In this document: piece after piece, positions 873 to 24,479 of the stretch
How positions within the stretch are numbered: position 1 is the stretch's first letter
How the letters are laid out: the number at the start of each line of letters is the position of its first letter
From: Alphaproteobacteria bacterium
Lineage (GTDB): Bacteria > Pseudomonadota > Alphaproteobacteria > SP197
Reading direction: 5' to 3'
NCBI GenBank assembly: GCA_964291265.2
Contig: OZ219747.1
Location: 2,240,001 to 2,304,000, forward strand
DNA: 64,000 nucleotides
Position numbers and translations under genes: made by a program
The notes under the pieces: model-generated
Told to the model about the DNA's origin: nothing
The model's input: the letters and a program-made list of their open reading frames with translations, nothing else
Database searches by the model: none

Positions 873-902
873 CATCCCTATACACGCGTGGGTGGTTGAA
901 AG
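1..902 (+). mobile_element. Right part of an IS4-family element inserted, inverted, into a related element
   Basis: Ends in GTTGAAAG (895-902); the same octamer at 1819-1826 marks the opposite-strand left end of the host copy. Confidence 0.6.
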
Positions 903-1773
903 GCGCCGCCTGGCCCATGACACGCTCAGGCTCCCGGCACAGCACGGCGCGCCAGTCAGGCGTCAGGGGCTTCATCCATACGGACCGCTGCACGCCCGGG
1001 CCGGTGGCCCCGGGAGGTCGACCCGAGGTCATCTCCTCACAGCGCTCCCAGCCCGCCGCCCGGTAGCTCACGCCGCTGTGCTCGGGACCCACATACGTGT
1101 ACGCCAGAACCGGCTTCACCCCGTACTTCTCGTGCCAGTCCGTAGCCAGACGCCGGCAGGCACAGGCCAGGGCATGGGAGGCCAACTCCTTCACATCCAC
1201 CGATGGAAGAATCAGGAAGCGATCATTGTTGACGATCTCGCCGAGGTGGGCGACACGGGCTCCCTGGGACCAGCCGATGAAGTCGTCGCGCGCCTTCTGG
1301 TGCCAACTCGCCGCACCAAACACCAGGCCGCCGAGGCGACCGTGGCGCGACGAGGTGATCCAGTAGCTCACCCGGGCTCCGGGTGCGCACGCCTCGCCTT
1401 CGGGATGCCAGGTCGCCATCATCGAACGGGCCAGGCGCTTGTCCTCGCCCTCGCCCACAGGCTCCAAGGTGACCTCTCCAAGGTCCTCCAGAGAACAGGC
1501 GAGGAGCTTGTCGGGATAGTCCCGCTCAAGGGTGTCGGCGCCGGTGCCGAAGGCATCAGGCCTTGGTGCAGGAAGGGCGATGTCGAGCGACGCAGCAAGG
1601 TCAGGCAGGGCCGCACGCGCCGAGGCAAGACACAGCTCGCCCTTCGCGTTGCGCCACTCCTCGCGCTCGCACAATCCCCGCGCCAGAGACGAGCGTGTGC
1701 TGCCCTCGGCAGCCGACGCCGCCTTCAGCCAGTCAACCGTCGTCGCAGACAGATGTCGAAAGCCGATCCTCAT
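903..1773 (-). pseudogene. DUF4338 (DruA-like) domain, probably the N-terminus of an IS4-type transposase, truncated by the insertion ending at 902
   Basis: FGAASWHQKARDDFIGW, VNNDRFLILP, LAS, DWHEKYGVKPVLAYTYV and G.SYRAAGW motifs typical of DUF4338. Confidence 0.75.
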
Positions 1774-2634: not shown

Positions 2635-3443
2635 GTGTGGCGAACTGGCGGAAGGTAGGGGGTGAAAGTCCCCTGAAACGAAGGAGTAACCAAACCACGT
2701 TTCTCCGCGAGCCGTGCGTCGGTTCCCGCGAGGGGGCAGGCGAAGCGTCGGTAGCGGTGCGGATGGGCAGGGCTAATGAGCACCGAAAAATCCATGTTTC
2801 GGGGTGCCGAGGCTTTCGTAATGGTCGAAGGCAACATCGCAGGCATCGATTTGGTGAGATGTCGGCGAGCTCCGCGGTGTCAGAGAACCCATGCACGTCC
2901 GTACGCCTTCTGTTGGGACCCTGGGAGGTCTTCGAACTATCCCGCCTGTCGTGGCGGGACCGTGTAGGGAAAGGAGAAAGCCGAAGCCTATGAGGAACGG
3001 TTTGAAGAAGTCAGATTCGGCCATAGTGTGTGCTGGGCAGCGCCCAGATCAGGTGGGTTCAAGTCCCACTGGCGCTCGGGTAAGGGGCGCCATATCCAAA
3101 AGCGGGGGTCATTCCTCGCTGGCCGGGGTGAGCGAATAAGCGACGCCCTAAACGGGCACGAAGTTGGAAACGACGGACACTGCCAAGGGAAGAGCTAAGG
3201 TAACTACTCACCCCCTACTGATGACGGATCGTTTTTCCTGACGGGTTCGGATCCGGCATTTTCTCTTGCCGCCTTCACTTGCTCGCTGCCGATGATCGGA
3301 TGTGCGTGTTCCGACTGACAAGAAGCGGATCGATCTTCGGCTTCAGCTCCACGTTCCGGCCTTGTATGACCAGGTTTTGTCCCCGTGATGATGCAATCAT
3401 CCACAGCGGTTGGCTGCCTTTCCAATCCTCTGGAGATATGCGC

Positions 3444-3472
3444 TTGACATTGTAGGAGGGGCACTCTACATG
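3444..3472 (+). promoter_or_regulatory. Putative sigma70 promoter of the MTase-tnpC unit (copy A)
   Basis: TTGACA-17 nt-TACATG; an equivalent motif lies upstream of the copy B MTase. Confidence 0.5.
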
Positions 3473-4078
3473 CTGGCCATCGGGGCGGTTTGCGTCGGAG
3501 ATATTGATGGCGGCATGGTACGGATCGAAGGCGACGACGGGTCTGAGCCAGGCGATCGTCGCGGCCATGCCGCCGCATGACGTGTACATCGAGGCGTTCC
3601 TTGGGGGCGGCGCGATCATGAAGCGCAAGCCTCCGGCGCTACGCAGCATCGGCATCGACCTCAACCGACGGGCGATCGACACCTTCCGCTGTGACTATCC
3701 GGTGGAGCTTCACCAAGGCTGCGCCCTGCGTTTTCTCGAGACCTTCGCCTTCCAGGGCCGCGAGCTGGTCTACTGCGACCCGCCTTACGTGCAGTCGACG
3801 CGCCGGTCGCAGCGCCGCTACCGCTTCGACTGCACGGACGACGACCATGCAGGACTTTCCTACGCTACGGCTGATTTTTCGGGAAGCCGATGAATCGCGC
3901 CCGAATCGGCCATCTGATCTTTCGCGAGGCCGACGAATCGAGGCCGAATCGGGATGTCCTGGACGGATTCCGTGGCTTCAGTGCCGTCCGCATGGCGACA
4001 CCGGCAGCGTTTTCGGCCCGGATGCTTGGTTCTTGATGTTCTAGCAGCGTTCCGGGGTCCCCGGACGCTCAAGGCGTC

Positions 4079-6156
4079 TCAGGGCCGGGTCAGGGCGTTG
4101 ATGGCCTCGCGACGGTCCAGTTGTAGGCGGCGCCGGGTTTCGGCGAGGCTTTCGGCCTCGCGGCGGTTGGCGAAGATCACCGCGAGCGCGATGTTGTTGA
4201 GGCTGGCCCGGTTCGCCGGGCCGTTGTCGGTGCGGGTCAGGCAGGCGTCTTCGCCGAAGACGCAATCCCTTTGTCGATGGTTCAGATTTTCCACGGCCCA
4301 GTGGCGGCGGTTCAGTCGCAGCAACTCTTCCGGCGACGTGGCCCCCGTATCGAGAGAGGTGATGATGTAATCGGTTTCCGTGTAATCCTTCTCTTCTTGC
4401 TTCCCGGCATCGCCGGAGCCTTTCTTCCCGGCATCGCCGGGGCCTTTCTTCCCGGCATCGCCGGGGCCTTTCTTCCCGGCATCGCCGGAGCCTTCCTTCC
4501 CGGCATCGCCGGGGCCTTCCTTCCCGGCATCGCCGGAGCCTTCCTTCCCGGCATCGCCGGAGCCTTCCTTCCCGGCATCGCCGGAGCCTTTCTTCCACGG
4601 CTCCCGATAGCGGGTGATGCGGGCGACCTGACGGACGCCCGGATAGTTGATCAGACCGTCCAACGGGACGAGGACGCTGATCGAACGCTGCTCCAGTCGA
4701 CCGTGCGCCTTGTCGAACGGCTCCGTGAAGTGGCCGGTAGCGTCTTTTTGCCAATTGATGCTGTCGAGGATGGCGAAGGTCTCCGGAGCGTTGCCCTTGA
4801 CGACGAAGACGTAATCCGCGCGTTGTGTGATCAGCTTTGCGGTATGGCGTGTCGTGTGCAGCGCGTCGAGGGTGATCACCTTGCCGCCGATGTCGCTGCG
4901 CTCCAGGAGATCGTGCATGGCCGCCAGTTCGCCGCCTTCGTCGTTGAAGTTCAGGAGGGAAAAGGGCGCGCCGGTCTCATGGTCGACAAGGGCCACGGTC
5001 TCGTGACGGCCATCGCCGTTGCGGTTGGCGCCGCGGATGCGCTTGCCGTCGGCGGCGAGTGCACGGGCGAGGTGAAGCCGAGGCCGGGACCAGCGGGTGA
5101 GCACATCCTCCAGAGCCTCGGGGTCGATCGACTGGATAACCCGGTGGATGGTGGACTTGGAGACGGGCTCGCGAAGCCCCGTCTTCGGGTTAAGCCACGC
5201 GCCGATGGCCTCCAACTCCTCCTGGGACAGGGACCGCGCGAACTGCGCGGCGGCGACACAGCCCTTCATGTTGGCGAACTCGGCGAGCACGTGCACGGTG
5301 AGCACCGATGCCGCGGTATGCTTCCTTCCCTGCGCCCGGCGGAAGTCGGGAATGGCCGCGAGCTCGGCGTAGAGCGAGCGCAGCACCTTGGGGTCCCGGG
5401 GCGCCAGTTCGGGGCATGAGGGCGGCGCCACGTCGGGGGGAAGCGGCAGCGGGCTCGACAGCAGCGCCCGGGCATCGCGCCTCAGTGCCGTAACGTAGAT
5501 ATCCTTGGGCTTGCCGTGAGGATCGGTGTAACGCCCGTTGGAGCGGGCAAACCCCTTGGTCTCACCCAGACACGTCCAGCCCGCAGCCCTCAACATCGTG
5601 CCGGCAAAGATCTCCGGATCGCAGAACGTCTCCGCCAGCAGCACCCCGTGGCCGTGCACCTGCAGCCAATCGTCACAGAGCCGGCGCGTCATGCACGCAA
5701 GGAAACTCAGAAGCAAGGTTCGCAAACACCCCGGGCTTGGAGATGAGCAAGAACCGCGTGTTGTTGGCCACCACCCCGAGCCGCTGGAACTGCTGCTTAA
5801 GGCTTCCAGCCGGTCCACTGGTCGCGGGGAGCGCACTTGAAGGCGCCGTTCTGCCACGCCGCCAGCCCCAGCCAATGGCCCCTGAAGGTCGCAAGGTAGC
5901 GCAGACCGCGACCCGCCAGGCGACGGAAGCCGAGATAGTGGTGCTTGTTCATCAGCGCGTCCCACAGCGGACGCTCCTCCGGCCTCGCCAGGCGAACATC
6001 GACCTCAGACAGGGAAAAACCCTCAGGTGCTTCCTGATGGATCGGGACAGCTTCCATGAGCTTGCGAATCGACATGACCGGACCGTCGCACATCCCAAGC
6101 GGGATGGCCAGCGGAAAATGTCCGCGCGCGTGCAACATACGAACGCCTGACGTCAA
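4079..6156 (-). pseudogene. DUF4338-ISAs1 transposase fusion with two frameshifts (~5800, ~5700)
   Basis: HHYLG, RDQWTGW, NNTRFL (DUF4338), then PDFRRAQGRKH, DGKRIRG, TLDALHT, VKGN, HGRLEQR, RRHWAVEN (ISAs1 DDE). Confidence 0.85.
4401..4596. repeat. 24-bp tandem repeat x8, in frame within the ISAs1 transposase
   Basis: TTCCCGGCATCGCCGG(A/G)GCCTT(T/C)C units encoding K(K/E)G(S/P)GDAG. Confidence 0.95.
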
Positions 6157-6520
6157 GTGAAATCAAGCGAATTCCAGCGTGGGAAGGCCTTGACGACCAT
6201 GTTGCGCTCCTTGACATCCTGACGTCGCTGCCCTGCCAGGTGATGATCTCCGGCTATCCCTCGCGGCTCTACGACACGCACCTCGCCGGCTGGCGCTCGG
6301 CCGAGATCCAGGTCAACAACCAGGCCTGCGTTGTCACCGAGAAGCTGTGGTTCAACTTCGCACCGGGCCGGCCGCACTGGCATACGTGTGCGGGCAGGAA
6401 CTCGATCGACCGCCAGCGCATCAAGCGCCTCGCAGAGAGCTGGGCGCGGCGCTACCGGACGATGCCCGAAGGCGAGCGGCTCGCCGTGCTGGCGGCAGTC
6501 ATGGCGGTGGAGGCGTCGTC

Positions 6521-7999
6521 ATGGCGAGCGTGAACGGCACGTCTGTGCGCCAGGAGGCCGACGTCTTCCAGAAGCAGTTCCAGGATCTCCGCAAGCAGGG
6601 CAAGGTCAACCAGGAGTGCGAGGAGCTCTTCCGCGGCATGCTGATGCTGATAAAGCTGTTGCTGACCGTGCTCATGGAGAAGATCACACGCAAGACAAGC
6701 CGGAACTCCGGTCTGCCGCCATCGCAGACTGACAAGGACGAGAGCGCGAGGCGCACCGGGAGCCACGGCAAGGGCCCGAAGCCGAACCAGCAGACGGGCG
6801 ACAACCTGCGCACGACCACCATCGAGGAGACGATCACCGTCGATGCCTGCGACGCCTGCGGCGCCGACCTCCACGACGTCGACCCCGTCGACCGGGAGTG
6901 CCGCGTCCTCTACGACATCGTGTTCGAAGTCGTCGAGCGCCGCGTCGAAGCCGAGATCAAGGAATGTCCGAAGTGCCGGGCCCGGACCAAGGGCCGGTTC
7001 CCAGACAACATGCCGGGCCCCCTGCAGTACGGCGTCAGCATCCAGGCCCTCGTCATCAACCTGCTGATCGCCCAGATGCTGTCCCTGCGTCGTGCCGTCT
7101 CGCTCGTGCACGCGATCTCCGGCATCAAGCTCTCCGAGGCGACCTGCCTCGGCTATGTCCGGCGCTTTCACGATGCCCTCGCATCATGGGAGGAGGCCGC
7201 CGTGGCCCATCTCCTGCAACAACCGGCCCTGCATGTCGACGAGACCGGCTTCCGGGTCGCCGGCAAGACCCAATGGCTCCATGTCGTCACCGACGGCACC
7301 CTGACGTGCAAGTTCCCGCACCCCAAGCGCGGCCGGGAGGCGATCGAAGAGATCGGCATCATCCCGCGCTACAAGGGCGTCCTGATCCACGACTGCTGGG
7401 CTGCCTACATGGGCTACGATCAATGCCGCCACCAACTGTGCGGCAGCCATCTCCTGCGCGAACTGACCTTCGTCGTCGAGTCCAACGGCTACCGCTGGGC
7501 GCGACTGATGAAAAGCCTACTGCGCGAGGTCTCCCGCAGGGTCAACAAGAGCGCATCCAAGACCTTGAACGAGGCCGACCGCCGGGCCGTGCGCAAGCGC
7601 TACCGCACCATCCTCACCCAGGGCGCCAAGGAACTGCCCGACATCCCGCCACGGACGAAAGGAAAACGGGGACGCATCGCAAAGTCCGACGCGCACAACC
7701 TGCATGAACGTCTCGTGAAACACGAGAAGTCCGTCCTGCGCTTCATGAAGGACCCCAACGTCAGTTTCACAAATAATACCGGAGAGCAGAAGATCAGGAT
7801 GACAAAGGTCAAGATCAAGGTGTCCGGATGTTTCCGCACCATGCCCCACGCCAAGGCATGGTGCCGCGGCTCAAGCTACCTCACCACCATGGACGCACTC
7901 GGCTACAACCCTCACGTCGCCATCCACATCGCCCTCGACGGAAAGGCCGTAGACATCCTCAACCAGCACTACGGACAACCAGACCCTAACAAGGGGTGA
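6521..7999 (+). CDS. tnpC: IS66-family transposase TnpC, intact
   Basis: NSGLPPS, CxxC zinc finger, HVDETG, WLHV, LIHDCW, HQLCGSHLLREL, FTNN.GEQKIRM.KVKIKVSGCFRT. Confidence 0.92.
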   Translation: MASVNGTSVRQEADVFQKQFQDLRKQGKVNQECEELFRGMLMLIKLLLTVLMEKITRKTSRNSGLPPSQTDKDESARRTGSHGKGPKPNQQTGDNLRTTTIEETITVDACDACGADLHDVDPVDRECRVLYDIVFEVVERRVEAEIKECPKCRARTKGRFPDNMPGPLQYGVSIQALVINLLIAQMLSLRRAVSLVHAISGIKLSEATCLGYVRRFHDALASWEEAAVAHLLQQPALHVDETGFRVAGKTQWLHVVTDGTLTCKFPHPKRGREAIEEIGIIPRYKGVLIHDCWAAYMGYDQCRHQLCGSHLLRELTFVVESNGYRWARLMKSLLREVSRRVNKSASKTLNEADRRAVRKRYRTILTQGAKELPDIPPRTKGKRGRIAKSDAHNLHERLVKHEKSVLRFMKDPNVSFTNNTGEQKIRMTKVKIKVSGCFRTMPHAKAWCRGSSYLTTMDALGYNPHVAIHIALDGKAVDILNQHYGQPDPNKG

Positions 8000-8969
8000 G
8001 TAGTTACGAGCTAAGTTGGTTCACTGTCGAGAGACAACCGGAGGGCAGGGTGTCCACCGTGAGGTGGAATCTGAAGGGCTTGCGGAGAAGTACCGGGCCG
8101 TAATCGAGGGGGCGACCCCATGATGAATCGGTCGGCCAAAGACGGGGCAAGGTCGAGCCGGCACTATGGCGGCGAAGGCGTTCTTACTCACCCGTCGCAC
8201 CAAGGTGTTTGCGAACGGCACGGTACGGAAGATCTGGACGTGACTCCAGGAGGGCTCGTCGTGTTCCCGGGTGGCACCGGGATAACGGCCCCTATAAGCC
8301 GAGAGGCGAAGTGGGAAAGGATGCACGGCGAGCAATCGGACAACCGAATAGTACCACAAGCCCGGTGAAAGCCGGGTGACCGCGCGAGCGGCGACCGGGT
8401 GGGTCGGGGAAGGCGGTTGGCAGAGGTGGTTGGTGAGAGACGGTGAAGGAGCGAGTAAGGATCATGACGCGGACAAGTTCCATGAGCGAAAGACCCGGAC
8501 GTCATGGGCCGAGGAGACTGGTTCACTGGCTCAACCTGACGGGAGAAAGGAAGGTCCACTCACTGGTGGGATCGCTTGATCTCACTGGTTCCTTCCCTGA
8601 ACCTTCGAAGAGCCCCCCCTGTGAAAGCGGCTTACGGGAAAACCGTACGGGCCGTTTGAGCGGCGGACGGAGGCCAGCCCTGCGGGGCGCCTCTTCCGAC
8701 CCGACACCTGTGAAGGCGGCGAACAAGGGAGCGTCAGCTTCTGCGGAGTCGCTGGAGGAAAGGGCCTCAACCAAGGGGAATCCGGGACGCCAAAGCACGC
8801 ACCGAACGCAGTGTCGGGCAAGCGTGCCACAGGCGGCGGCTCGGATACGGGAAGCCACAGGCCAGTCCAGTGGTTTGCCGTCCAGTACCCGAGGTAGGAG
8901 CCGGATGGATTAACGTCCACGTCCGGATCTGCGCGGGGGGTGCGCAGCAATGCGCATCCCTACCGCGTC

Positions 8970-9141
8970 TTCCAATGTCATGCTTCACGACCGCCCGTGT
9001 CCCTTTCGCATGCGCTGCCCCCTTGTCATGTCCGGAACCTGCGACAGGGAGCCGGCGCCGGCAAGGGAGATGGCACACGGGCACATCGTCATGTGCCAGC
9101 ACGACGAGGCAACCCTCCTCGCGGCGCAGGGCGGAACCTGA
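8970..9141 (+). pseudogene. 3' part of the ABC ATPase (Cys-rich oligopeptide-transporter C-terminal domain)
   Basis: CPFRMRCP...C...P...H...C pattern; in frame with 2066-2634 after intron removal. Confidence 0.8.
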
Positions 9142-9148
9142 TTCCTCC

Positions 9149-10582
9149 CTACCCGTCGAGCGGCGGTCTCGTTGCGGAATCGCCGTAGAGCGGCATGGCA
9201 GACCCGATCGCATGGGCCACCCGGAACACGGTCTCTTCGTCGAAGGGGTTGCCGACGATCTGAATGCCCGTGGGGACCCCGTTGGAGTCGAAGCCCGAGG
9301 GGACGGACAGCACCGGCAGGCGGCTGAACGCGTTGAATGCCGGGGTCATGATGACACTGTGGATGTCATGGTTGACACCGCCGACGCTGACGGGCTGTTC
9401 CCAGTCCCTCAGGTCCGCCGGAATCGCGGTGGTTCCCACCGTCGGGCAGATGAAGACGTCGTGGCGCGCCAGGTCGGGCATGAACGTCAGCCAGGCGTTG
9501 CCGATCGCCTTCATGCAGTCGTGGAACATGCGGGGCGTATAGTGTTCGTTGCGTCGTGCGAAGGTCACCGTGTAGTCGCAGGCGAGGTCGGGATGGTGAT
9601 CCGCTGCATCGCTGAATTCATCGGCATAGATCATCCCTCCCCAGGCCGGGAAAGCGTCCAGCAGGTCCCCGGCCCACGGGGTGGCAATCTCTTCCGTGCC
9701 GGCTCCGCCAAGGGCCGTTTCGACGGTCCGCCGCGTGTTCCTCCTCACCGCGTGCGAGACGGCGTGGCAACCGAGATCCTCCGACCAGGCCACCTTCAGC
9801 CCCTCCACGCCTGCAGGACACTCGGACAACAGGGGAGCACCCGGAACATGTGCCGGGTCCCTTGCCCCATGGGGACTGTTGGCGATAGCGTTCTGCACGA
9901 GCGCGGCGTCGCCGCTGGTACGGGTCATGGGGCCGATGTGAAAGAAGGGATCCATCGCCACCTCGGGACTTCCGGGGTTGCGGCCGTAAGGTGGCTTGTA
10001 GCCGGTGATGCCGCACATGGCGGCCGGCATCCTGATGCTTCCGGCGCTGTCGGAACCGGTGGCAAGCGTCGTTGTTCCTGCAGCGACGGCGGCGGCAGCG
10101 CCGCCGGACGAGGCGCCGCACGTGATCGCCGTGTTCCATGGATTGCGCGTCACCCCGTGCAGGCGCGACGTGCAGGTCCAGGGCCAGACGAATTCCGGGC
10201 ACGTGGTGAGGGCATGGATGATCGCGCCCTCATCGACAAGGGCGGCAATGGTGGGATTGGTATGATCCGCCAGGTTGTCGGCGAAGATGAGGGATCCAAA
10301 GGTCCGGGGCTTGCCGAAAACAGCCGTATCTTCCTTGACCGCCAGCGTCAGGCCCTCAAGTCGTCCGGGACCGCCATCCTTCCCGGCATAGCGCGCTTCC
10401 GAGCGCCGTGCCGCTTCCAGGGCTTCATCGAAGAAGGTGTAGGCAAGGGCATTGACACGATCCTCGACCACGCTGGCACGAGCGATCTGTGCCTCGAGAA
10501 CGTCCACGGGCGAGAGCTCGCGGGTCCTGAACAGGCGCAAGGTCTCTCCGGCGTCAAGAAAGCAGAGATCGGTGTCGTTCAT
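9149..10582 (-). CDS. Amidase signature family protein
   Basis: AVKE catalytic Lys, GASSGG, GSDSAGSIRMPA. Confidence 0.9.
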   Translation of the reverse strand: MNDTDLCFLDAGETLRLFRTRELSPVDVLEAQIARASVVEDRVNALAYTFFDEALEAARRSEARYAGKDGGPGRLEGLTLAVKEDTAVFGKPRTFGSLIFADNLADHTNPTIAALVDEGAIIHALTTCPEFVWPWTCTSRLHGVTRNPWNTAITCGASSGGAAAAVAAGTTTLATGSDSAGSIRMPAAMCGITGYKPPYGRNPGSPEVAMDPFFHIGPMTRTSGDAALVQNAIANSPHGARDPAHVPGAPLLSECPAGVEGLKVAWSEDLGCHAVSHAVRRNTRRTVETALGGAGTEEIATPWAGDLLDAFPAWGGMIYADEFSDAADHHPDLACDYTVTFARRNEHYTPRMFHDCMKAIGNAWLTFMPDLARHDVFICPTVGTTAIPADLRDWEQPVSVGGVNHDIHSVIMTPAFNAFSRLPVLSVPSGFDSNGVPTGIQIVGNPFDEETVFRVAHAIGSAMPLYGDSATRPPLDG

Positions 10583-10644
10583 GGGTGGATGATCCGAAGC
10601 GGGAATGTTGCCACCAAACCACGAACCGCACACGGAATCGACCG

Positions 10645-11304
10645 GTGAAGGATCCCGGGCGTCGCCTTGCCGCCGAGTTCATCGGCACGGCCTTCCTTCT
10701 GGCGACCGTCGTCGGATCGGGCATCATGGCGGAGACGCTGTCGCCGGACAATGTCGGCGTTGCGCTTGCCGGAAACACCCTGGCGACGGCGGCCATGCTG
10801 GTCGTCCTGATTCTGGTCTATGGCCCCGTTTCGGGCGCCCACTTCAATCCGGCGGTCACCCTGGCCTTCGCCCTCAAGCGGGACATCACGGTGGGCGAGG
10901 CGGCGGGCTATGTCGTCGTCCAGGTGGCCGGCGCCCTTGCCGGCGCCATGCTCGCCCATGTCATGTTCGACCAGCCGCTTCTCCTTGCTTCGCAGCAGGA
11001 GCGCACGGGCCTGGGCCAGTGGACAGGAGAACTGGTGGCCACGTTCTCCCTGGTGGCCGCCATACTCGGCTGTCTGAAGTGGCGTCCGGATGCGGTGCCC
11101 TGGGCCGTTGGCCTGGCGATCGCCGGCGGATACTGGTACACCTCCTCGACCTCCTTCGCCAACCCGGCCGTCACCATGGCCCGCAGCCTGACGGACACCT
11201 TCTCCGGAATCCTTCCGGCCCACGCGCCGGCATTCATCGCGGCGCAGTGCGCCGGTGCCACCGCCGCCGTCCTGCTGATGGGCTGGCTCCTGCGGCGGAC
11301 GTGA
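10645..11304 (+). CDS. MIP/aquaporin family channel (AqpS-like)
   Basis: SGAHFNPAVT and SFANPAVT NPA motifs; about six hydrophobic segments. Confidence 0.9.
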   Translation: MKDPGRRLAAEFIGTAFLLATVVGSGIMAETLSPDNVGVALAGNTLATAAMLVVLILVYGPVSGAHFNPAVTLAFALKRDITVGEAAGYVVVQVAGALAGAMLAHVMFDQPLLLASQQERTGLGQWTGELVATFSLVAAILGCLKWRPDAVPWAVGLAIAGGYWYTSSTSFANPAVTMARSLTDTFSGILPAHAPAFIAAQCAGATAAVLLMGWLLRRT

Positions 11305-14867: not shown

Positions 14868-15624
14868 AGTTCCCTGTTCAAGCCCGTCTTGCCACTCGGG
14901 AACCACTTGCGGCCGACGCAGATCGAAGCGGGTGGGCATGGTTGAGGTCGCCAGGCCGAGCGGCGGCGCCTGCAACCGTTTGTTTGACAGCAATCTGGGA
15001 TCAAAGTTATTCAAATCCAGACGCTAACTCTTGATTGTGGCGCATCGTATTCTCGTGAGCTTAACAAGACGCTGACTGCACGCGACCTGACGGGACCCCA
15101 TTTCAGATTCTGACGTGAAGTCTTGACAAGGCCACGTCACGCCGCGTTCCCCAGGGTGAGGAATGTTCCGCATGGACAGGAGCGAAACCGGCCGATACGA
15201 ATCCATCGTCGTCAGCGGCGAGACGGTGCGGGCTTTCGTCCCGGCGCCCCTGCCGCCTGCGCCCGCCCTGGCCTGGCCATTCTGCAACCCCGTCTGGAGC
15301 GGGCCTTGCTTGCGCTTGGACGCCTGGACAGCCTGTCCACGCTGCTGCCCGACATCGGCCTCTTTCTCTACACATACGTGCGCAAGGAAGCGGTCCTCTC
15401 CTCCAGGATCGAAGGGACAAAGTCCTCGTTGTCCGATCTGTTGCTGTTCGAGATGGATGAAGTCCCCGGCGTTCCGTTCGACGATGTCGCGGAGGTCTCA
15501 AGCTACGTGGCAGCCCTGGAGCATGGGTGTAACTACCCAGGTACCTCGTCAGGTCTGAGTCTGTGTTGACGTTGGTTGCGTTGGGTGCGGTTTTGGTGTC
15601 GTCGGTTTGTTGATTCTGCGCGTC

Positions 15625-15653
15625 TTGACTTACTAGGCCGGTGAGCCTATGAG
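15625..15653 (+). promoter_or_regulatory. Putative sigma70 promoter of the MTase-tnpC unit (copy B)
   Basis: TTGACT-17 nt-TATGAG. Confidence 0.45.
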
Positions 15654-15681
15654 TTGCCCTCTGTCATGAGGGGAGCGGCCG

Positions 15682-16350
15682 TTGGGGTACTTCGGATCGA
15701 AGGCGACGCCGGGTTTGTGCCAGGCGCTGATTGCGATGATGCCGCCGCACTCTGTCTACATTGAGAGCCATCTGGGGGGCGGAGCGCTGATGAATCGCAA
15801 GCCTGCGTCTGTGCGCTCGATCGGGATTGACCGTGATGAGCGTGCGCTTGAGGCCTTTGAGTGCGCTTATCCGGTGGAGTTGGTGCACGGCTGTGCTCAC
15901 TCCTTCCTGGCTTCGTTCCCGTTTCTGGGTCCGGAGCTGGTCTACAGCGATCCGCCCTATCTGCACGCGACGCGGCGTTCGTTGCAGCGCTACCGCTTCG
16001 AGTACGAGGAGGCGGACCATGTTGCGCTCCTTGAACTGCTCAAGGGCCTGCCCTGTCAGGTGATGGTCTCGGGCCACCCGTCTGCGCTCTATGACGATCT
16101 TCTGGCGGGCTGGCGCCGGGTGGCGCTGCAGGTGACGACCCAGGCCCAGGTGCGGACCGAGGTGGTATGGTTCAACTTTGCTCCCGACCGGGTGCACTGG
16201 TCGCGCTACGCGGGGCGGAACTTCACCGCCCGCCAGTGCATCAAGCGCAAGGCGGCCAACTGGGGGCGGCGCTACGAGGCCATGCCGCCGGGGGAACGTC
16301 TGGCCGTGCTGGCGGCGATCATGGCCGTCGAGGCCGGGGAGGGTTCGTGA
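15682..16350 (+). CDS. Short Dam-like N6-adenine DNA methyltransferase, intact (222 aa)
   Basis: YFGSK, YIESHLGGGA, YSDPPY, VMVSG, RTEVVWFNF; GTGA overlap with tnpC. Confidence 0.9.
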   Translation: MGYFGSKATPGLCQALIAMMPPHSVYIESHLGGGALMNRKPASVRSIGIDRDERALEAFECAYPVELVHGCAHSFLASFPFLGPELVYSDPPYLHATRRSLQRYRFEYEEADHVALLELLKGLPCQVMVSGHPSALYDDLLAGWRRVALQVTTQAQVRTEVVWFNFAPDRVHWSRYAGRNFTARQCIKRKAANWGRRYEAMPPGERLAVLAAIMAVEAGEGS

Positions 16351-17737
16351 CCGTCTCGCGCTGGCGCGAGGACATCGCCGCCCAGGACGAGGCTTTCACG
16401 TGCCTTCAGGACCTGTTCAGTCCACACTCCTTCGCCGTGACTGCCGTCAAGGCCCTCCGGGATTGGGGCCAGGGGATGTTGCGCCTGAGTGAGGCGCTGG
16501 TCGGGGAGATCGAGGCGCTGGAGCGGGAGAACACCGGCTTGCGCGAACGGATTGATGCACTCGAGCGCAGCGCCGCGCTCGACAGCTCCACCAGCTCCAA
16601 GCCACCGGCCAGCGACGGTCCGAAGAAGAAGAGCGGAAACCGACAGAAGCGCACCCGGAGCCAGCGCGGCAAGTCCGACAGGCCCAGTGGCGGTCAGCGC
16701 GGCCACGAGGGAGTCACCCTGAAGCAGGCCGAGAACCCGGACCACGTCGTCGATCATGCTCCGTCTGCCTGTAAGGGCTGCGGCGCGCCGCTGTCGGATG
16801 ATGACCGTCACGCAGAACCCGTCTGTCGGCAGGTCTTCGACATGCCCGAGCCGTAGCCCCTCGAGGTCACCGAACATCGCGCCCATCGCTGTCTCTGCGC
16901 CGCCTGCGGCGCTGTGACAACAGCCGCCTTCCCGCACGGCGTGAGCGCCCCGGTCCAGTACGGGCCGCGCATCACCGCCTGGGTGACCTACCTGTTGCAC
17001 GCCCAGTTCATTCCCGAGAAGCGCGTCGCCGAGGTCATGAGCGACCTCTTCGCCGTCAGGATCTCAACCGCCACCATCGCCGCCATGGGCAGGCGCACCG
17101 CCCGGCGCTTCGAGAGCTTCCTCGATCATGTCGCAGAGATCATCCGCACCCAAGCACCGGTCAAACACCTCGACGAGACCGGCATCCGCATCAACGGCCA
17201 GACCCACTGGCTCCATGTGCTGTGCACCCCCTTGCTCACCATCCTGCGCATCGCCACCGGGCGCAAACACATCGACGAGACACTCAACGGCATCGTCATC
17301 CATGACGACTTGGTGTTGATGGCTGCATAGAACGGCGGGATTTCGGCGATTTGCCGCGCTTTGTCAGGGTCGTGTTTCTTCCCTGTTGTTAGGTCCTATT
17401 GTCACGTCCTGTTGTCGTGGTTTGAGTGTTCGGCTGGTTGTCTCCCCGAGCGCCGCCGTCTTTTCCTATTGTCGTTTTGGTCCGGTTCGGGTTCCGTCGA
17501 CCTCTGCTTCGGTCTTGGTGACGGTTGCCGGGAGGGTTCCGGTTCCGAGGCACTCGCGGGATCGTCTGTCTTCCCTGTGGGCGGGTCGCGTTGTCCGGTC
17601 CCGGGGCGGCGTTTTTGCCGCCGCCCCGGGTGGATGCTAGATCGGCATCAAGAGAAAGAGCGATGCGATGCCGGGCGGAGTTGTGACGCCCCCCGGCGCA
17701 GCACCCGGACGAGCCGGTCACGGGGGACCGAACTCCC

Positions 17738-18268
17738 GTGTATTGTCGAGCCATTTTGCGTCCGGGTCCACCCCCGCTCTCGAGACGGACGGTGTGCACG
17801 ACAGGACGACTGTTCAACTGCAGGCGGTGTCAGCGGCAGGTTGTTCTCTGCCGGTCGTGTGACCGGGGGCATGTGTATTGCTCCAAGGAGTGCAGGGAGC
17901 GGTCCCGGATCGAGCGGCGCCGCGCGTCGCGTCGTCGCTACCAGAGCACGCTGAAGGGCCGTGAGACGGGCCGTCACCGCCAGCGGCGTTACCGGCTCCG
18001 CAAGGCGGAGGAGGCGCGTGCGTTGAAGGCCAGGGCGGCGATGGTTGCCGAGATCATGGACACGCAGACGTCTGCTGTGGTGCTGCTTGGCGACGTTCCG
18101 GCGGTGTCTGGAGACGCCGGTTCTGAAGAAATCGTTACGGACCACCCTTCCCGACTGCTGCCGACCTCCCTACCTGCGGTTGTGAAGGCGCAAGAGCGAC
18201 GCGAATCGCCGCTTCGGTGCGCCCGGTGCGGACGGGTCGTGACGCATGTGGTGCTGAGGGACCTGTGA
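17738..18268 (+). CDS. Cys-rich, Arg-rich hypothetical protein upstream of istA (start uncertain)
   Basis: CxxC...CxxCDRGHVYCSxEC followed by a basic helix and a C-terminal CxxC; frame conserved in copy 2. Confidence 0.7.
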   Translation: MYCRAILRPGPPPLSRRTVCTTGRLFNCRRCQRQVVLCRSCDRGHVYCSKECRERSRIERRRASRRRYQSTLKGRETGRHRQRRYRLRKAEEARALKARAAMVAEIMDTQTSAVVLLGDVPAVSGDAGSEEIVTDHPSRLLPTSLPAVVKAQERRESPLRCARCGRVVTHVVLRDL

Positions 18269-18300
18269 TGCGGCGTTGAGGAACCAAAGGGAGGGAGTTC

Positions 18301-19794
18301 ATGGCGATCGACGAGGACACGCGGGCGACGATCGTGCGGCTGTCGCGGGCCGAGGGCTGGGCTGTGGGGACGATTGCCCGGCATCTCGGCGTGCACCACG
18401 GCACGGTGACGCGGGCGCTCAAGGCGTCGGGGCAGGAGCGGCGGCCGCGGGCCAAGCTCATCGACCCCTTCGTTGCCTTCCTCGGGGAGCGTCTTGAGGC
18501 GTCGCCGGACCTTCCGGCCAGCACGCTCTGGCGACAGGTCGTGGCCCTGGGCTACCGCGGCGGCGAGGATCACTTCCGTCACGACCTGCGCCGCCTCGGG
18601 CTGAGGCCGGTGAAGAGGCCCGAGCCGTCACTGCGGCTGAGCTTCCTTCCGGGCGAGCAGGCGCAGGTTGACTGGGCCGAGTTCGGGAAGGTCCGCATCG
18701 GCCGGGCGGAGCGCAGGCTCATGGGGCTTCTCGTCACCCTCAGCTACTCGCGCCAGACTGTCCTGAGCCTGTTCCACGACGCGCGGATGGCCAGCTTCCT
18801 GCAAGGCCATGTCGAGGCTTTCGCGGCATTCGGGGGTGTGCCGCGGAGGCTTCTGTACGACAACCTGAAGAGTGCCGTGGTGACGCGCCGCGGCAAGGCG
18901 GTCACCTATCATCCGATGCTGCTCGGCCTCGCGGCCCACTATGCCTTCGAACCGAGCGCCGCCTGGCCCAGGAGCCCGCAGGAGAAGGGCCGCGTGGAAC
19001 GCCGTGTGCGCTTCGCGCGCACCGGGTTCTTCGCCGGGCGCGACATCACGGTCCCGCTCGGCGAGCTCAACGCCGCAGTTCGGGAGTGGTGCTTCGGCGC
19101 CGCCGCGGAGCGGCCCTGGCCGGACGACGACAGTCTCCTGGTGCGGGACGCCTTCGCCCGGGAGAGGGAGCACCTGATCGTCCTTCCCGCCGATCCCTTC
19201 CCGCATCACGAGGTCCGCCCGGTGCGCATCGACAAGACCTGCCACGCCCGCTTCGACACCAACGACTACAGCGTTCCGGGTAGCTTCTCCAAGGCCCTGC
19301 TGACGCTGGTCGCCGACCGCGACGAGGTTCGCATCCTCGACGGCGCCGACGAGGTCGCGCGCCACCGACGCTCCTACGACAGGAAGCAGGCCGTCACCGA
19401 TCCGGAGCATGCCAGGGCGATCGCCGCGGGCAAGCGGCGGGCCCGCTCCATGAGCGTCCGCGACCGGGTCCTGCGCACCGTGCCGCGGGCCGAGGAGATG
19501 CTGGCGCGCGCCGGGACCAACGGGCGCAACGTGGCCTCCTGCGCCCGGATGCTGGAGACGCTTCTCAACGCGCACGGCGCCGACGCTCTCGACCGGGCTG
19601 TCGCCACGGCGCTGGAGCGCGGCTCGTGCCACCCCGAAACCGTGCGCGTCATCATCGAGGAGCGCCGCCGGGAGCAGGGCCTGCCGCCCCTCAGCATCGC
19701 CGACGACGGCCGCGGCGGCCGTGGCACGACGCCGCGGGGGACCGCTCTCGACGCCTACGACAGGCCCGAAGCCAGCGCCAGGAACAAGACATGA
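18301..19794 (+). CDS. istA: IS21-family transposase IstA
   Basis: N-terminal HTH, PGEQAQVDW, LSYSR, LYDNLKSAV, KGRVER, FDTNDYSVP. Confidence 0.93.
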   Translation: MAIDEDTRATIVRLSRAEGWAVGTIARHLGVHHGTVTRALKASGQERRPRAKLIDPFVAFLGERLEASPDLPASTLWRQVVALGYRGGEDHFRHDLRRLGLRPVKRPEPSLRLSFLPGEQAQVDWAEFGKVRIGRAERRLMGLLVTLSYSRQTVLSLFHDARMASFLQGHVEAFAAFGGVPRRLLYDNLKSAVVTRRGKAVTYHPMLLGLAAHYAFEPSAAWPRSPQEKGRVERRVRFARTGFFAGRDITVPLGELNAAVREWCFGAAAERPWPDDDSLLVRDAFAREREHLIVLPADPFPHHEVRPVRIDKTCHARFDTNDYSVPGSFSKALLTLVADRDEVRILDGADEVARHRRSYDRKQAVTDPEHARAIAAGKRRARSMSVRDRVLRTVPRAEEMLARAGTNGRNVASCARMLETLLNAHGADALDRAVATALERGSCHPETVRVIIEERRREQGLPPLSIADDGRGGRGTTPRGTALDAYDRPEASARNKT

Positions 19795-20492
19795 GCGAGC
19801 TCAGGGAGCGTGCCCGGGCGCTCGGCCTCCACGGGCTCGTCGAACGCTGGGACGAGGTCGCCGGGACCGCATGGATCGAGGAGGTGGTCAGCGGCGAGGA
19901 ACAGGCCCGCAGGGCCCGCAGCCACGAGCGCCGCCGCGCCGCGGCGCGGCTGCCCGCCTTCAAGCCCCTGGCGGACTTCGACTGGACATGGCCGCGCGAC
20001 ATCAGCCGGGCTCATGTCGAAGCGCTCCTCGGCCTCGGCTTCGTCGACCGTGCGGACAACGCCGTGCTCGTCGGCGGGCAGGGCACCGGAAAGACCATGA
20101 TCGCTGCCAACGTGGCTCACCAGGCCCTGCTGCACGGCCACACCGTCCGCTTCGAGAAGGCGCCGGAACTGCTCGAGGCACTCGCCGAGACCGTCTCGCG
20201 CAGCGAGCTGCGCCGCCGCCTCGCGATCCTCGCCAGGCCCCGCCTGCTCGTCCTCGACGAAATCGGCTACGTGACCCTCGAAAGCCACCATGCCGACATC
20301 CTCTACGCCATCGTCTCGCGGCGCTATCAGCGCCGCTCGACCATGGTCACGACAAGCCTCGCCTTCGCCCAGTGGGACCGCGTCTTCCCCAGCGCCTCCG
20401 GCATCGCCGGCACCGTCGACCGGCTCATGCACGACGCAACCCTCATCTCCATCGACAGCGACTCCTGGCGGCTCAGGCGTGAAACCCGATAA
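19791..20492 (+). CDS. istB: IS21-family ATPase IstB
   Basis: LADFDW, GGQGTGKT Walker A, LLVLDEIGY Walker B, DRLMH, SWR. Confidence 0.93.
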   Translation: MSELRERARALGLHGLVERWDEVAGTAWIEEVVSGEEQARRARSHERRRAAARLPAFKPLADFDWTWPRDISRAHVEALLGLGFVDRADNAVLVGGQGTGKTMIAANVAHQALLHGHTVRFEKAPELLEALAETVSRSELRRRLAILARPRLLVLDEIGYVTLESHHADILYAIVSRRYQRRSTMVTTSLAFAQWDRVFPSASGIAGTVDRLMHDATLISIDSDSWRLRRETR

Positions 20493-21372
20493 ACCCCGCC
20501 GCGTCGACTTCGACGCCGTCAAGCGCATGCCGTTCGAACGCATCGCCGCCGACTGGGGATACGTCCGCGACGAACAGGCCTCGACACGCGCCAACCCCGT
20601 CCTGTGCGCACCCGGCCTGCCGAAGCTCGTCACGAAGTGCCTCAACAACGGACACTGGGTCTACTTCAACACCCAGAACGATGAAGACAACGGAACCGTC
20701 ATCGACTTCATGCTCAACCGCGGACTGGCCTTCGCCGACATCTGCACCCGCTTCACAGCACCCGACGCCGCGCCACGCGACTTCCGCAGCCTCTGGGCCG
20801 CGGCAACGCCCGATGCGGCCCCGGACTGGCTCACCGGGCGCGGCATCCTCCCGGAGACCCTCGACACCTGCCGCCCCCTGGTCCGCCGCGACCACAACGG
20901 ACGCGTCCTCTTCGCCCATCGCAACAGGAAGCGAAAGCTCACCGGCTTCGAGATCGGTCCCCCCGACGGACCGAAACGCTTCGCCACCGGTGGAACCCGA
21001 AGCCTGTTCGCCGTCCGCGCCGGAACCGCCGCGGACCTCGAGGCCCTCGTCATCACCGAAAGCGCCGTCGACGCCCTCAGCCTGGCCCAGATCGACCAAT
21101 GTCCCCCCAGCCACGCCTTCCTCTCCACCGCCGGGGCACCCTCGCGAAGACAGCACGAACAGATCAGCCTCGCCGCAAGCAGCCTGCCCAACGTCAGGAC
21201 CATCGTCCTCGCCCAGGACCACGACGAGGCCGGAGAGCGACAGGCCGAAACCCTGCGCAAAAAGATGAAGCTCCCCTCCCACGTCTCGTTCCACAGACGC
21301 AGACCGCCGGAAAACGCCGACTGGAACGACGTCGTCAACGCCAGGACCAAAGAACCACAAGCGAGATCATGA
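20479..21372 (+). CDS. Toprim-domain primase-like protein (DUF3991/Toprim type)
   Basis: GTVIDF, WLTGRGI, GFE, VITESAVDALS, STAG, AQDHDEAG, DWND. Confidence 0.8.
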   Translation: MKPDKPRRVDFDAVKRMPFERIAADWGYVRDEQASTRANPVLCAPGLPKLVTKCLNNGHWVYFNTQNDEDNGTVIDFMLNRGLAFADICTRFTAPDAAPRDFRSLWAAATPDAAPDWLTGRGILPETLDTCRPLVRRDHNGRVLFAHRNRKRKLTGFEIGPPDGPKRFATGGTRSLFAVRAGTAADLEALVITESAVDALSLAQIDQCPPSHAFLSTAGAPSRRQHEQISLAASSLPNVRTIVLAQDHDEAGERQAETLRKKMKLPSHVSFHRRRPPENADWNDVVNARTKEPQARS

Positions 21373-21398
21373 CCACGTCCGTCACAAGGAGACCACTC

Positions 21399-21689
21399 AT
21401 GCCCCTCACGCCCGCCGAAAAGCAGCGGCGATACCGGGAACGGCGCAAGGCCGGCATCCCTCCCGTCCACACCCCAAAGCACCGTGACCGGCGCTCGCGA
21501 CCGCAACGCTGGAACGACGCCGTGGCCGAACTGCGCGCCCTGCAGGACGAATGGCGTGACCACCTCGACAGCATCCCCGAAAGCCTCCGTGACACGCCTT
21601 ACGGAGAACGCCTGCAGAGCGTCGCCGATGCCGACATCGAGGCCCTCGAGGACATCGAACCGCCACGCGGCTACGGAAGGGATACGTGA
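21399..21689 (+). CDS. Small hypothetical protein with a basic N-terminus
   Basis: MPLTPAEKQRRYRERRK start with AGGAG RBS; intact in both element copies. Confidence 0.65.
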   Translation: MPLTPAEKQRRYRERRKAGIPPVHTPKHRDRRSRPQRWNDAVAELRALQDEWRDHLDSIPESLRDTPYGERLQSVADADIEALEDIEPPRGYGRDT

Positions 21690-22260
21690 TCCCGCAAGAC
21701 CCTTGAACGCGGTCACGCGTTACCATCCAGGAATGAGAACGTCTCACCCCGACGCGCCGCTCAGCCTCCCCGGGAAACTCCCGGGCCGTCCAAACGACAC
21801 CGCATCACGAGACTGCCGCAGCCGCTGGCCGGACTGGCTTACAGGTCGCAGCATCCGCCCGAAAACACTCGACGCCTGCCGCACCCTGCAGGACGAATGG
21901 CGTGACCGCCTCGACAGCATCCCCGAAACCCTCCGTGACACGCCTTACGGAGAACGCCTGCAGAGCGTCGCCGATGCCGACATCGAGGCTCTCGAGGACA
22001 TCGAACCGCCACGCGGCTACGGAAGGGACACGTAATCTCGCAAGACCCTTGAACGCGGTCACGCGTTACCATCCAGGAATGAGAACGTCTCACCCCGACG
22101 CGCCGCTCAGCCTCCCCGGGAAACACCCGGGCCGTCCAAACGACACCGCATCACGAGACTGCCGCAGCCGCTGAGCCGCAGCAACGCCCGATCCGCCGCC
22201 GGACTGGCTCACAGGTCGCAGCATCCGCCCGAAAACACTCGACGCCTGCCGCACCCTGCG
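21538..22260 (+). repeat. About 346-bp tandem duplication in the right arm of the element
   Basis: CCCTGCAGGACGAATGGCGTGACC begins at both 21538 and 21884. Confidence 0.85.
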
Positions 22261-22475
22261 CCGCCGCAACCGCAACGCACGCAGCCTCTTCGCCCAGCGC
22301 AACAGAAACCGTCAGCTCTCCAGCCTCGAGATCGTCCCGCCCGACGAACCACGACGAGGACGGAGAACGCCAGAACAAGACCCCGCGCAAAAGCCTGAAG
22401 CTCCCCTCCCACATCACGTTCCACAAACGCCGAACGCCAGAAAACGCCGACCGGAACGACATCGTCAACGTCAAT
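22150..22475 (+). pseudogene. Degenerate, internally deleted duplicate of the Toprim gene
   Basis: Colinear similarity to ~20775-20975, then jumps to ~21220-21340. Confidence 0.75.
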
Positions 22476-24479
22476 GCAAGACCAATGGGATCCAACAATA
22501 GGCAGAAAACAAAGACCGGGCGGACCTTCGTCCAATGCCGCACGTTCTCCTGTCGTGGTCACCCACTCACACGATCAGCGCCCAAAAGAGCGGTTCTCCG
22601 CCAATATCCCGCCGTTCTAAATCGCCGCCGACACTTGGCCACTTACTTCACTCTCGAGGGCGTGCGCCACGGTGCCTGCAACGCCCATCACCTGCGCGCA
22701 CTCCAGGCCCTGATCGAGATCGAGAAGGAAGACTGGGCCACCGCCATGCACAGGCTCCTCATCCGTGCCAACAGAGCCGCCCGCTTCGCCCGCAAGAACG
22801 ACCGCGACATCCCCGCTTCACTCCTCGCCCGCATCTCGCAAGCCTGGGACAGGATCCTCGAGCAGGCCATCGCTTCCCACGAACAGAGGCCGCCGCTCCA
22901 GCCCGGAAAGCGCGGACGACGAAAACGCCGCATCGGCCACAACCTCGCGCTTCGCCTTCAGAAGCACAAGGACGGCTGCCTGCGCTTCCTCACCAACCCG
23001 CAAGTCCCGTTCTCCAACAACCAGGCCGAGCAAGACTTCCGTATGAGCAAGCTGCGCCAGAAAATCTCGGGCGGCTTCCGATCCATGCAGGGCGCATGTG
23101 ACTTCGCCAAGCTGCGATCCGTCATCTCCACCGCCCGAAAACAGGGCTGGAATGTCCTCGAAACACTGGCTCACCCTGATCCCATACAGCTGATCCCGAA
23201 ACTGCGCTTCTGACATCCCTCCTCGGCGCCATCAGACCGCAGCCATCAATCCACCTCCCGTCAGGACTCGGCGAAATTAGACCTGGGCAGTTACGCACGG
23301 GTTGCGTCGCCTGCGCGAAGGCTTTCCCCTGTGCAACCGTCTCATCCGGGAGATTCACGGGGTCTTGCTCGGTCGCGGTCGCGGCCGCAACAGGGCGCCC
23401 GGAGAGTTTCGCCGCTCAAAAACTGGATCGGAGGCCGTCGCCCCGGGGTGGCGCGCTTCGTCCCACCTCCGGTTTCCGCGGTTGCCGATTGCATGTCCGG
23501 GCTCGAACGCTTCATTGCCGCTGACAACGGCACATTGCCCCTCGTCCTGCGGGCAGGCCTCGCTCATGTACAGTTCGAGACCATCCACCCGTTCCTCGAT
23601 GGGAATGGTCGGGTAGGACGCCTCCTGATCTCGCTCATGCTGCATCATGGCGGCGTCTTGCGCGAGCCGCTTCTGTATCTGAGTCTCCATTTCAAGCAGC
23701 ACCGTGACGACTACTACGTTCTCCTCAACGATGTGCGGTACCGAGGCGACTGGGAAGCTTGGCTTTCGTTCTATCTCGACGGGGTGGCGGAGACCGCCGA
23801 AGGTGCGGTCGAAACCGCGAAGCGACTGCTGGCGCTGTTCGAGGAAGATCAGGCCAGGATCCGGCAGACAGGACGGGCGGCGGGGTCGGCGCTGCGCGTA
23901 CATCAGGCGTTGCGCGAGCGTCCCATCGGATCGATCAGAAAACTGGCCGGGCGCGCAAGCCTTTCCTTTCCAGCGGCATCGGCAGCGGTGAGGAATCTGC
24001 AAGACCTGGGCATTGCCCGGGAATTGACGGACAAGAAGAAGAACCGGCTCTTCGGTTACGACCGCTATCTGGCCATTCTGGGCGAAGGGACGTAACCATG
24101 GTCATCGGCCGACACTGCCGGTTTCGGACCGGCATCCGGCGAAACGGCCTCCAGGCTGAACAGTGCTGGCCAACTTCCGCCCGCCTTCAATCCAGAGCCA
24201 GTCGCCGTTCCCGGGAATCGCTCCCTGCCGCCATGCCGCGACTCTCCGTTCCCCTGATGCCTGCCACGCTTCCTTGCCGTGCCAGCCTCTCACGCCGTTG
24301 ACCGGAGAGCAGGTGTCGTGGGCCGCAACTCGTTCTTGGCCCCGTGGTCTTGATGAACGCCCGGCATGCGGAATCGTGACGGCTCGCGCCTGCGGCAGGT
24401 TTCCAGGCTACCGTGCCGGTGGCATGGCGCGAGTGTGCGTCGGCGAAGGGCTGAAGCGGGCCAGTCGATGGTCGCAACG

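Follow-up and report, generated by a model that had tools for sequence, protein, structure and literature searches.

Insertion sequences (ISs) are normally controlled by host factors or by their own transposase, and in IS10 and IS50 the Dam methylase acts at the element ends and controls the transposase promoters. Within the IS66 family, elements with tnpC as their only gene make up the ISBst12 group, which includes ISGst1. The name of this group appears in a table of PMC8024623, and ISs with passenger genes have been described as transporter ISs (tIS; PMC9330008). Upf31 of IncP-1beta plasmids lowers the activity of its own promoter, measured in XylE units, from 4.76 to 0.09, an autorepression that depends on the C-terminal residues Y180, F185 and W198 (Elg et al. 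2025, PMC11997246). In that study, methylation by Upf31 was undetected in E. coli with DpnI/MboI or by SMRT (single-molecule real-time) sequencing, the SMRT design being an expression vector in ER2796 followed by motif finding, and the main phenotype involves the plasmid protein KorB. Here we describe elements A and B, two ISs in a 64,000-nucleotide stretch of the alphaproteobacterial contig OZ219747.1 (the window, meaning the whole stretch analysed), in which a methyltransferase (MTase)-like gene, encoding a 222-aa protein in element B, stands ahead of an IS66-type transposase gene, tnpC.

Judged by its sequence, the 222-aa protein is a member of the Upf31 family, with the IncP-1beta Upf31 as its nearest studied relative. 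Its promoter and open reading frame (ORF) form a portable cassette that moves between unrelated IS families. We propose, with a probability of roughly 0.55, that this cassette represses itself and throttles the transposase behind it: from conserved sequence patterns and the analogy with Upf31, a dimer of the protein would sit on a palindrome and repress the transcript that the two genes share.

The promoter palindrome and the Upf31 family

A TTGAC box lies no more than 120 nt before the start of the MTase-like ORF in 154 of 159 loci. The consensus over 106 unique IS sites reads TTGAC-A-N-C-A-TAG-N10-C-TA-TGCT. Sites were picked by positions 1-5 and 24-25; two parts that were not used in picking, TAG at positions 10-12 and C23, are conserved at 98-100% and 93%, respectively, and no position of the 10-nt spacer between the half-sites holds more than 0.38 bit. 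TAG falls in the promoter spacer, a stretch in which sigma70 has no sequence requirement, and across the free 10 nt it is the mirror image of the CTA at positions 23-25. The palindrome TAG-N10-CTA thereby overlaps the -35 and -10 boxes. T10 and A25 are 98-100% conserved, A25 being the -11 A of the -10 box. The TTGAC boxes reported for both elements in the first-pass annotation of this DNA were located at 3444 (A) and 15625 (B), among the following features (TIR, terminal inverted repeat; TSD, target-site duplication).

Element B
15521..15528, no strand: left target-site copy GCATGGGT, retained in the empty site of run X2
15529..15542, + strand: left TIR GTAACTACCCAGGT
15625..15653, + strand: predicted sigma70-type promoter (-35 TTGACT, 17 nt, -10 TATGAG), overlapping the imperfect palindrome ACTAG-N10-CTATG (predicted operator)
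15682..16350, + strand: Upf31-family Dam-like ORF, 222 aa, intact, DPPY at 90-93, C-terminal helical pair 181-217
16347..17313, + strand: IS66 tnpC, 5' part, GTGA overlap with the MTase-like ORF, in-frame TAG at 16854-16856
17314..22633, + strand: nested IS21-family element (istA 18301-19794, istB 19791-20492, Toprim cargo), 5-bp TSD CTTGG
22634..23213, + strand: IS66 tnpC, 3' part
23281..23294, - strand: right TIR
23295..23302, no strand: right target-site copy GCACGGGT, a 7/8 match to GCATGGGT

Element A
3192..3199, no strand: left TSD GAGCTAAG, from TIR/TSD comparison and the empty site in a contig of run X3
3200..3214, + strand: left TIR GTAACTACTCACCCC
3444..3472, + strand: predicted promoter TTGACA with the perfect palindrome TGTAG-N10-CTACA (predicted operator)
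3507..3849, + strand: MTase-like ORF, 5' part
3850..6191, - strand: nested ISAs1-family element within the MTase-like ORF, 10-bp TSD GACGACCATG
6192..6533, + strand: MTase-like ORF, 3' part
6521..7999, + strand: IS66 tnpC, intact, 492 aa, 13-nt overlap with the MTase-like ORF
7993..8007, - strand: right TIR
8008..8015, no strand: right TSD GAGCTAAG

Across the genome the palindrome occurs mainly at cassette promoters. The pattern with a 10-nt spacer has 24 sites; left ends of elements account for 19 (15 just before MTase-like starts and four more inside left ends), and control spacers of 5-9 and 11-15 nt give one to five matches. It sits 100-270 nt inside the left end, outside the TIR, and is rare at right ends, TAG-N10-YTA falling within the last 250 nt of six of 90 elements. 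Among distant phage and plasmid loci, a half-site pair stands above shuffles at 25 of 42. At P2-like and plasmid loci (L002, L005, L006 and others), the upstream region frequently has several half-site pairs in tandem instead of one. A second peak, at spacer 16, was considered as an operator and rejected: it stems from family-A tnpC, whose 3' end holds an inverted repeat. That repeat, CCGTAG-N16-CTACGG, lies at 7947-7974 of the window, about 35-60 nt off the right end; it has the look of the operator half-sites, but its spacer is 16 nt.

The 222-aa protein is 43-44% identical to Upf31 of pBP136 over its full length (about 220 aa), C-terminal domain included. The two proteins have the same length, DPPY, and C-terminal helices with W194 (W198 in Upf31), and their genes have the same order of -35 box, half-site, N10 and half-site. 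All three residues required for Upf31 autorepression are kept in element B, where Y180, F185 and W198 correspond to Y176, F181 and W194. The upf31 promoter has the layout TTGACAGCATCG-N10-CGAGACTG, an inverted repeat over the promoter with the geometry of the IS cassettes. However, the half-sites are TAG/CTA in the ISs and TCG/CGA in the Upf31 clade, essentially a single event. The systems differ further in that the IS-borne gene precedes a transposase, whereas Upf31 stands alone on the plasmid backbone, and in that the IS cassette has no KorB partner. The IS-borne sequences form a separate clade (100/100, in a sample biased to close matches).

Linkage to transposases and exchange of the cassette

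From more than 500 matches, the best 80 loci were compared; they are biased to close relatives and were found partly through the DPPY pattern. A transposase lies downstream in all 79 genome loci (26 genome titles, 72-92% identity): 68 are IS66 by tblastn, one is an IS66 start cut by an IS21, four are IS701 and six are of the DDE_Tnp_1 type. In metagenomes, IS66 was found by tblastn in 61 of 70 informative loci, the other nine comprising two IS701, one weakly IS66, one 8-oxoguanine glycosylase and five unassigned. At L208:4001-5527 a 67%-identical homolog with the same promoter-palindrome stands ahead of an 8-oxoguanine glycosylase gene, with no transposase there. The IS701 and DDE_Tnp_1-type carriers are true elements, multicopy and with their own TIRs and duplications of 9 or 5 bp around the cassette, so the arrangement is not peculiar to IS66 as had been supposed. 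The TIRs of the three carrier families are unrelated. In all three, the cassette lies upstream of the transposase gene, which has the same orientation and is no more than about 70-140 nt away, and an ATGA or GTGA overlap has often been re-made after each cassette swap. The 13-nt and GTGA overlaps are present in the window elements as first described, but are not general: MTase-like ORF and tnpC overlap in 18 of 62 related loci, with gaps of 2-36 nt in the other 44. A programmed MTase-transposase fusion was considered for the same 62 loci and rejected, the tnpC frame being open for more than 150 nt upstream in 0/16 low-GC and 13/46 high-GC loci; no dedicated search for longer, fused homologs was run.

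Among more distant homologs, at 35-53% identity, IS66 is downstream in none of 42 full-length viral loci (the phage homologs include P2-like SEN5), and an IS is adjacent in none of the four plasmid matches inspected, of 200 records. Close homologs are nearly always IS-linked, the distant phage and plasmid ones unlinked. The family is present in five of 301 genomes of a class-wide sample, this genome counted.

The TnpC proteins of elements A and B are divergent (28% identity) and their MTases alike (62%), an observation already made in the first-pass annotation and read there as an old, conserved pairing of one lineage. Approximately unbiased (AU) tests contradict that reading. Monophyly of the MTase-bearing TnpCs is rejected (p-AU 4e-4), and on the MTase tree the IS66-linked (2e-4), A-type-linked (9e-53) and IS701-linked (1e-36) sequences are each rejected as a clade, while the B-type-linked MTases are not rejected (0.48). 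Trees were built with LG+G4 without mixture, from 16 rows for TnpC and, for the MTases, from 45 of 154 sequences after de-duplication, 11 long-branch viral rows being left out of the AU-tested tree; the MTase tree gives neither the direction nor the number of exchange events. What IS701-type elements have in common with IS66-type ones at the DNA level starts near the promoter or the beginning of the ORF and ends with the stop codon. Together, the rejected clades and the limits of the shared DNA indicate that the cassette has been exchanged between transposases and is not one old lineage. Two loci considered as within-gene chimeras (L142 and L150) have an ORF that is B-like throughout and an A-type tnpC, and thus reflect a swap of the whole cassette.

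The closer relatives of TnpC-B (41-53% identity) belong to single-gene ISs of 1.5-1.8 kb without an MTase, two of which have element B's own TIR together with perfect TSDs; MTase-free sisters with that TIR measure 1547-1583 bp. Because the closest MTase-free sisters are single-gene ISs of 1.55 kb, the cassette was added to tnpC-only ISs; it did not take the place of tnpA and tnpB, as was first thought.

The two elements, their copies and the Dam-like protein

Both elements are bounded by GTAAC TIRs as annotated at the outset, with 15/15 bp identical in A (3200-8007) and 13/14 bp matching in B (15529-23294), and profile matches bear out the MTase-like ORF and the IS66 tnpC in each. The 8-bp TSD is perfect in A, whereas in B its two copies match at seven of eight positions. 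Missing from that annotation were the nested ISs, which have broken both window copies of a unit that is truly about 2.45 kb in each family: the MTase-like ORF of A is interrupted, so this copy is not intact, and tnpC of B is doubly broken, by the in-frame TAG and by the IS21-family insertion.

In the genome, 16 copies of family A have their left and right ends paired, and 15 of them have a perfect 8-bp TSD, all different. The family's ten unit-length copies carry a 224-aa ORF and a 492-aa tnpC and are 97-100% identical, an intact unit being the one at G000:C2:765997-763542, and one paired copy, a deletion derivative in decay, has lost the MTase-like ORF. Family B has eight long paired copies and two short derivatives. 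With these paired copies, neither element is a chance arrangement, and empty target sites in contigs of two other runs (B in X2, A in X3) confirm the element ends and recent movement. One family-A copy (G000:C1:104609-109528) holds a second family-A copy inserted in the opposite orientation, and one family-B copy (G000:C2:613783-611342) lies between 9-bp instead of 8-bp duplications.

On sequence, elements A and B belong to the IS66 family and to its tnpC-only type, with the features of the ISBst12 group. The transposase matches PF03050 (E=3e-42) and NF033517 (251.5 bits against a cut-off of 180), GTAA TIRs match at 12/14 positions or better in 79 of 92 related loci, and unit-length copies hold the MTase-like ORF and tnpC alone, the tnpA and tnpB of the canonical three-gene IS66 group being missing. 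TnpC is 32-38% identical to the ISGst1 transposase, and TnpC-B is nested among single-gene elements. With ISBst12-group elements such as ISGst1 they have in common GTAA TIRs, an 8-bp TSD and a single IS66 DDE transposase, but cassette-bearing elements are about 0.85 kb longer and have the promoter, palindrome and MTase-like gene before tnpC. As in tIS, an extra gene inside the TIRs moves with the IS; in contrast to tIS, the gene here seems to be tied into the expression of the transposase, and IS families exchange it as a unit. We found no description of such an IS-borne cassette in the open literature; ISfinder and TnPedia were not covered, and it may already be catalogued.

The MTase-like ORF is an integral part of mobile IS66 elements and is under purifying selection (dN/dS, the ratio of nonsynonymous to synonymous rates, is 0.13-0.29 in 16 pairs). 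A frameshift that deletes the C-terminal domain of the protein is common to five of the eight family-B copies, including all three with intact tnpC. Two of these three are 100% identical and lie at different sites, so jumping does not require the MTase-like protein in cis. The frameshift represents one mutational event, and it is consistent, if weakly, with repression in trans.

According to its AlphaFold model, which is confident (predicted local distance difference test score, pLDDT, 91), the 222-aa protein keeps the Dam fold and lacks the Dam target-recognition domain. Structurally it matches Dam, T4Dam and DpnM best (Z 17-18 across about 150 residues), and Dam 2g1p aligns at 149 of its 246 residues with Z 18.2 and a root-mean-square deviation of 2.4. 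A profile search against the PDB aligned positions 2-60 and 81-158 to DpnM 16-72 and 184-266, whereas phmmer with the single sequence found no match there. The order of motifs (X-I-II...IV) is that of the alpha class, and the S-adenosylmethionine (SAM)-binding motif I and the catalytic DPPY are kept. Fold, motif order and DPPY are thus shared with E. coli Dam, T4Dam and DpnM. However, the target-recognition region between motifs III and IV, about 110 residues in DpnM, is cut to about 20, and a helical pair (181-217) without counterpart in the structural match rows listed is added at the C-terminus. The ORF scores 23.9 bits against TIGR00571 (Dam family), below the cut-off of 114.85, and has weak matches among PHROG DNA methyltransferases; the MTase piece of element A passes the Pfam D12 cut-off. 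Close and distant homologs alike show almost no variation in DPPY or in the residues of motifs I and X, and D90 is present in 261 of 263 aligned homologs, a count free of the bias of selection by the DPPY pattern. All 16 PF02086 matches in the host genome fall at IS-copy positions, and this search found no canonical Dam.

Other features of the window concern its nested ISs and surroundings. The ISAs1-family transposase (4079-5965, - strand, 628 aa) has an N-terminal extension of about 200 aa and a tandem repeat of 24 bp x 8.5 in its coding region (4396-4601). Besides istA and istB, the IS21-family element carries as cargo an ORF of Toprim/DUF3991 type and a tandem duplication of 346 bp. Immediately to the left of element A, at about 2640-3200, contig depth is very high in all three runs, which suggests other small multicopy repeats there. 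An ORF at 703-1773 (- strand) with a match to Druantia DruA (PF14236, E=6e-22) may be part of another mobile element rather than of a defence system, and a 592-aa ORF at 8870-10648 without Pfam or NCBIfam match may be a shadow frame.

Proposed function and alternatives

In the autorepression we propose, one transcript from the predicted cassette promoter would span the MTase-like ORF and the transposase gene, and a protein dimer on the two half-sites would occlude the -35 and -10 boxes. The repressor would be common to all copies and act in trans, capping transposition as copy number rises and permitting a burst once a naive host is entered. This arrangement would resemble the control of IS10 and IS50 by Dam in placing a methylase-type protein at a site overlapping the transposase promoter; it differs in that the protein is self-encoded, the site is a bipartite palindrome instead of GATC, and any methylation is putative.

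Several observations weigh against autorepression. The left half-site of element B is imperfect (ACTAG), and symmetric covariation is weak in the IS clade (0.75 observed versus 0.66 expected for pair 9/26). Element A, on a long branch of the tree, keeps the W alone of the three Upf31 repression residues, and the KorB-linked main phenotype of Upf31 is irrelevant for IS elements. The MTase-free sisters retain intact TIRs and TSDs, so control by the cassette is dispensable. Finally, the catalytic motif is nearly invariant although a pure repressor has no obvious need for it.

This last point bears on the main rival explanation, possible if clearly less probable, in which the palindrome is an operator-specific methyl switch. 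The dimer would methylate its palindrome's symmetric adenines, of which one is the A at -11 in the -10 box, and the promoter would be off when methylated and briefly on after replication or transfer, a self-encoded analogue of Dam control of IS10. The structural matches to Dam, T4Dam and DpnM, the invariance of DPPY and motifs I and X, the conservation of T10 and A25 and the lack of PF02086 matches outside IS copies fit such a switch. Loss of the target-recognition domain does not, and conservation of the SAM pocket may equally be structural or allosteric. Upf31 methylation was undetected (PMC11997246), but the SMRT test, as described, was made without the cognate promoter and could have missed a rare bipartite site. 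A related idea that we hold tentatively is that a Dam derivative without target recognition might serve as a portable, self-encoded epigenetic switch, its dimer flipping or methylating operator adenines including the -11 A, so that transposition would be coupled to replication, to entry into a host, to copy number or to the level of SAM, and that it was repeatedly captured among IS66, IS701 and DDE_Tnp_1-type elements.

It is unlikely that the cassette is a selfish passenger, which would control itself only and hitchhike on ISs, phages and plasmids, with incidental read-through into the transposase. The phage and plasmid homologs without an IS and the existence of MTase-free sister ISs would suit a passenger. 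However, in three IS families the cassette is always upstream of, near to and in the same orientation as the transposase, the overlap has often been re-made, and the ORF is under purifying selection like that on the transposase.

We consider it very unlikely that the protein acts as a broad or non-specific N6-methyladenine methylase of the Hia5 kind, protecting intermediates of transposition or reprogramming the host, despite its intact catalytic motifs, its D12/Dam annotation and its homologs on conjugative plasmids and phages. An intracellular IS already carries the protection of host methylases. Such activity would have shown in the Upf31 SMRT test as described (PMC11997246), and Hia5 retains a target-recognition region of about 90 residues (PMC3299994). 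Marking or binding of the TIRs to control transpososome assembly, which an element-encoded protein and the action of Dam at IS10 and IS50 ends might recall, is scarcely credible given the internal position of the palindrome, its rarity at right ends and the unrelated TIRs of the carrier families. The roles first suggested for the protein, in anti-restriction, end marking or altering the methylome, are not supported, given the absent target-recognition domain, a motif that is rare at right ends and genome-wide, and a relative, Upf31, that is described as a repressor without detected methylation.

If the cassette is autorepressing, simple ISs would have a new means of limiting their copy number, namely an exchangeable repressor module built on a methylase scaffold, and the poorly understood Upf31 family would gain a defined target. 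The cassette offers a clean test case for deciding if such 'DNA methylases' act as enzymes or as repressors; if the latter, thousands of database proteins (2767 clusters) would have been misread as ordinary methylases.

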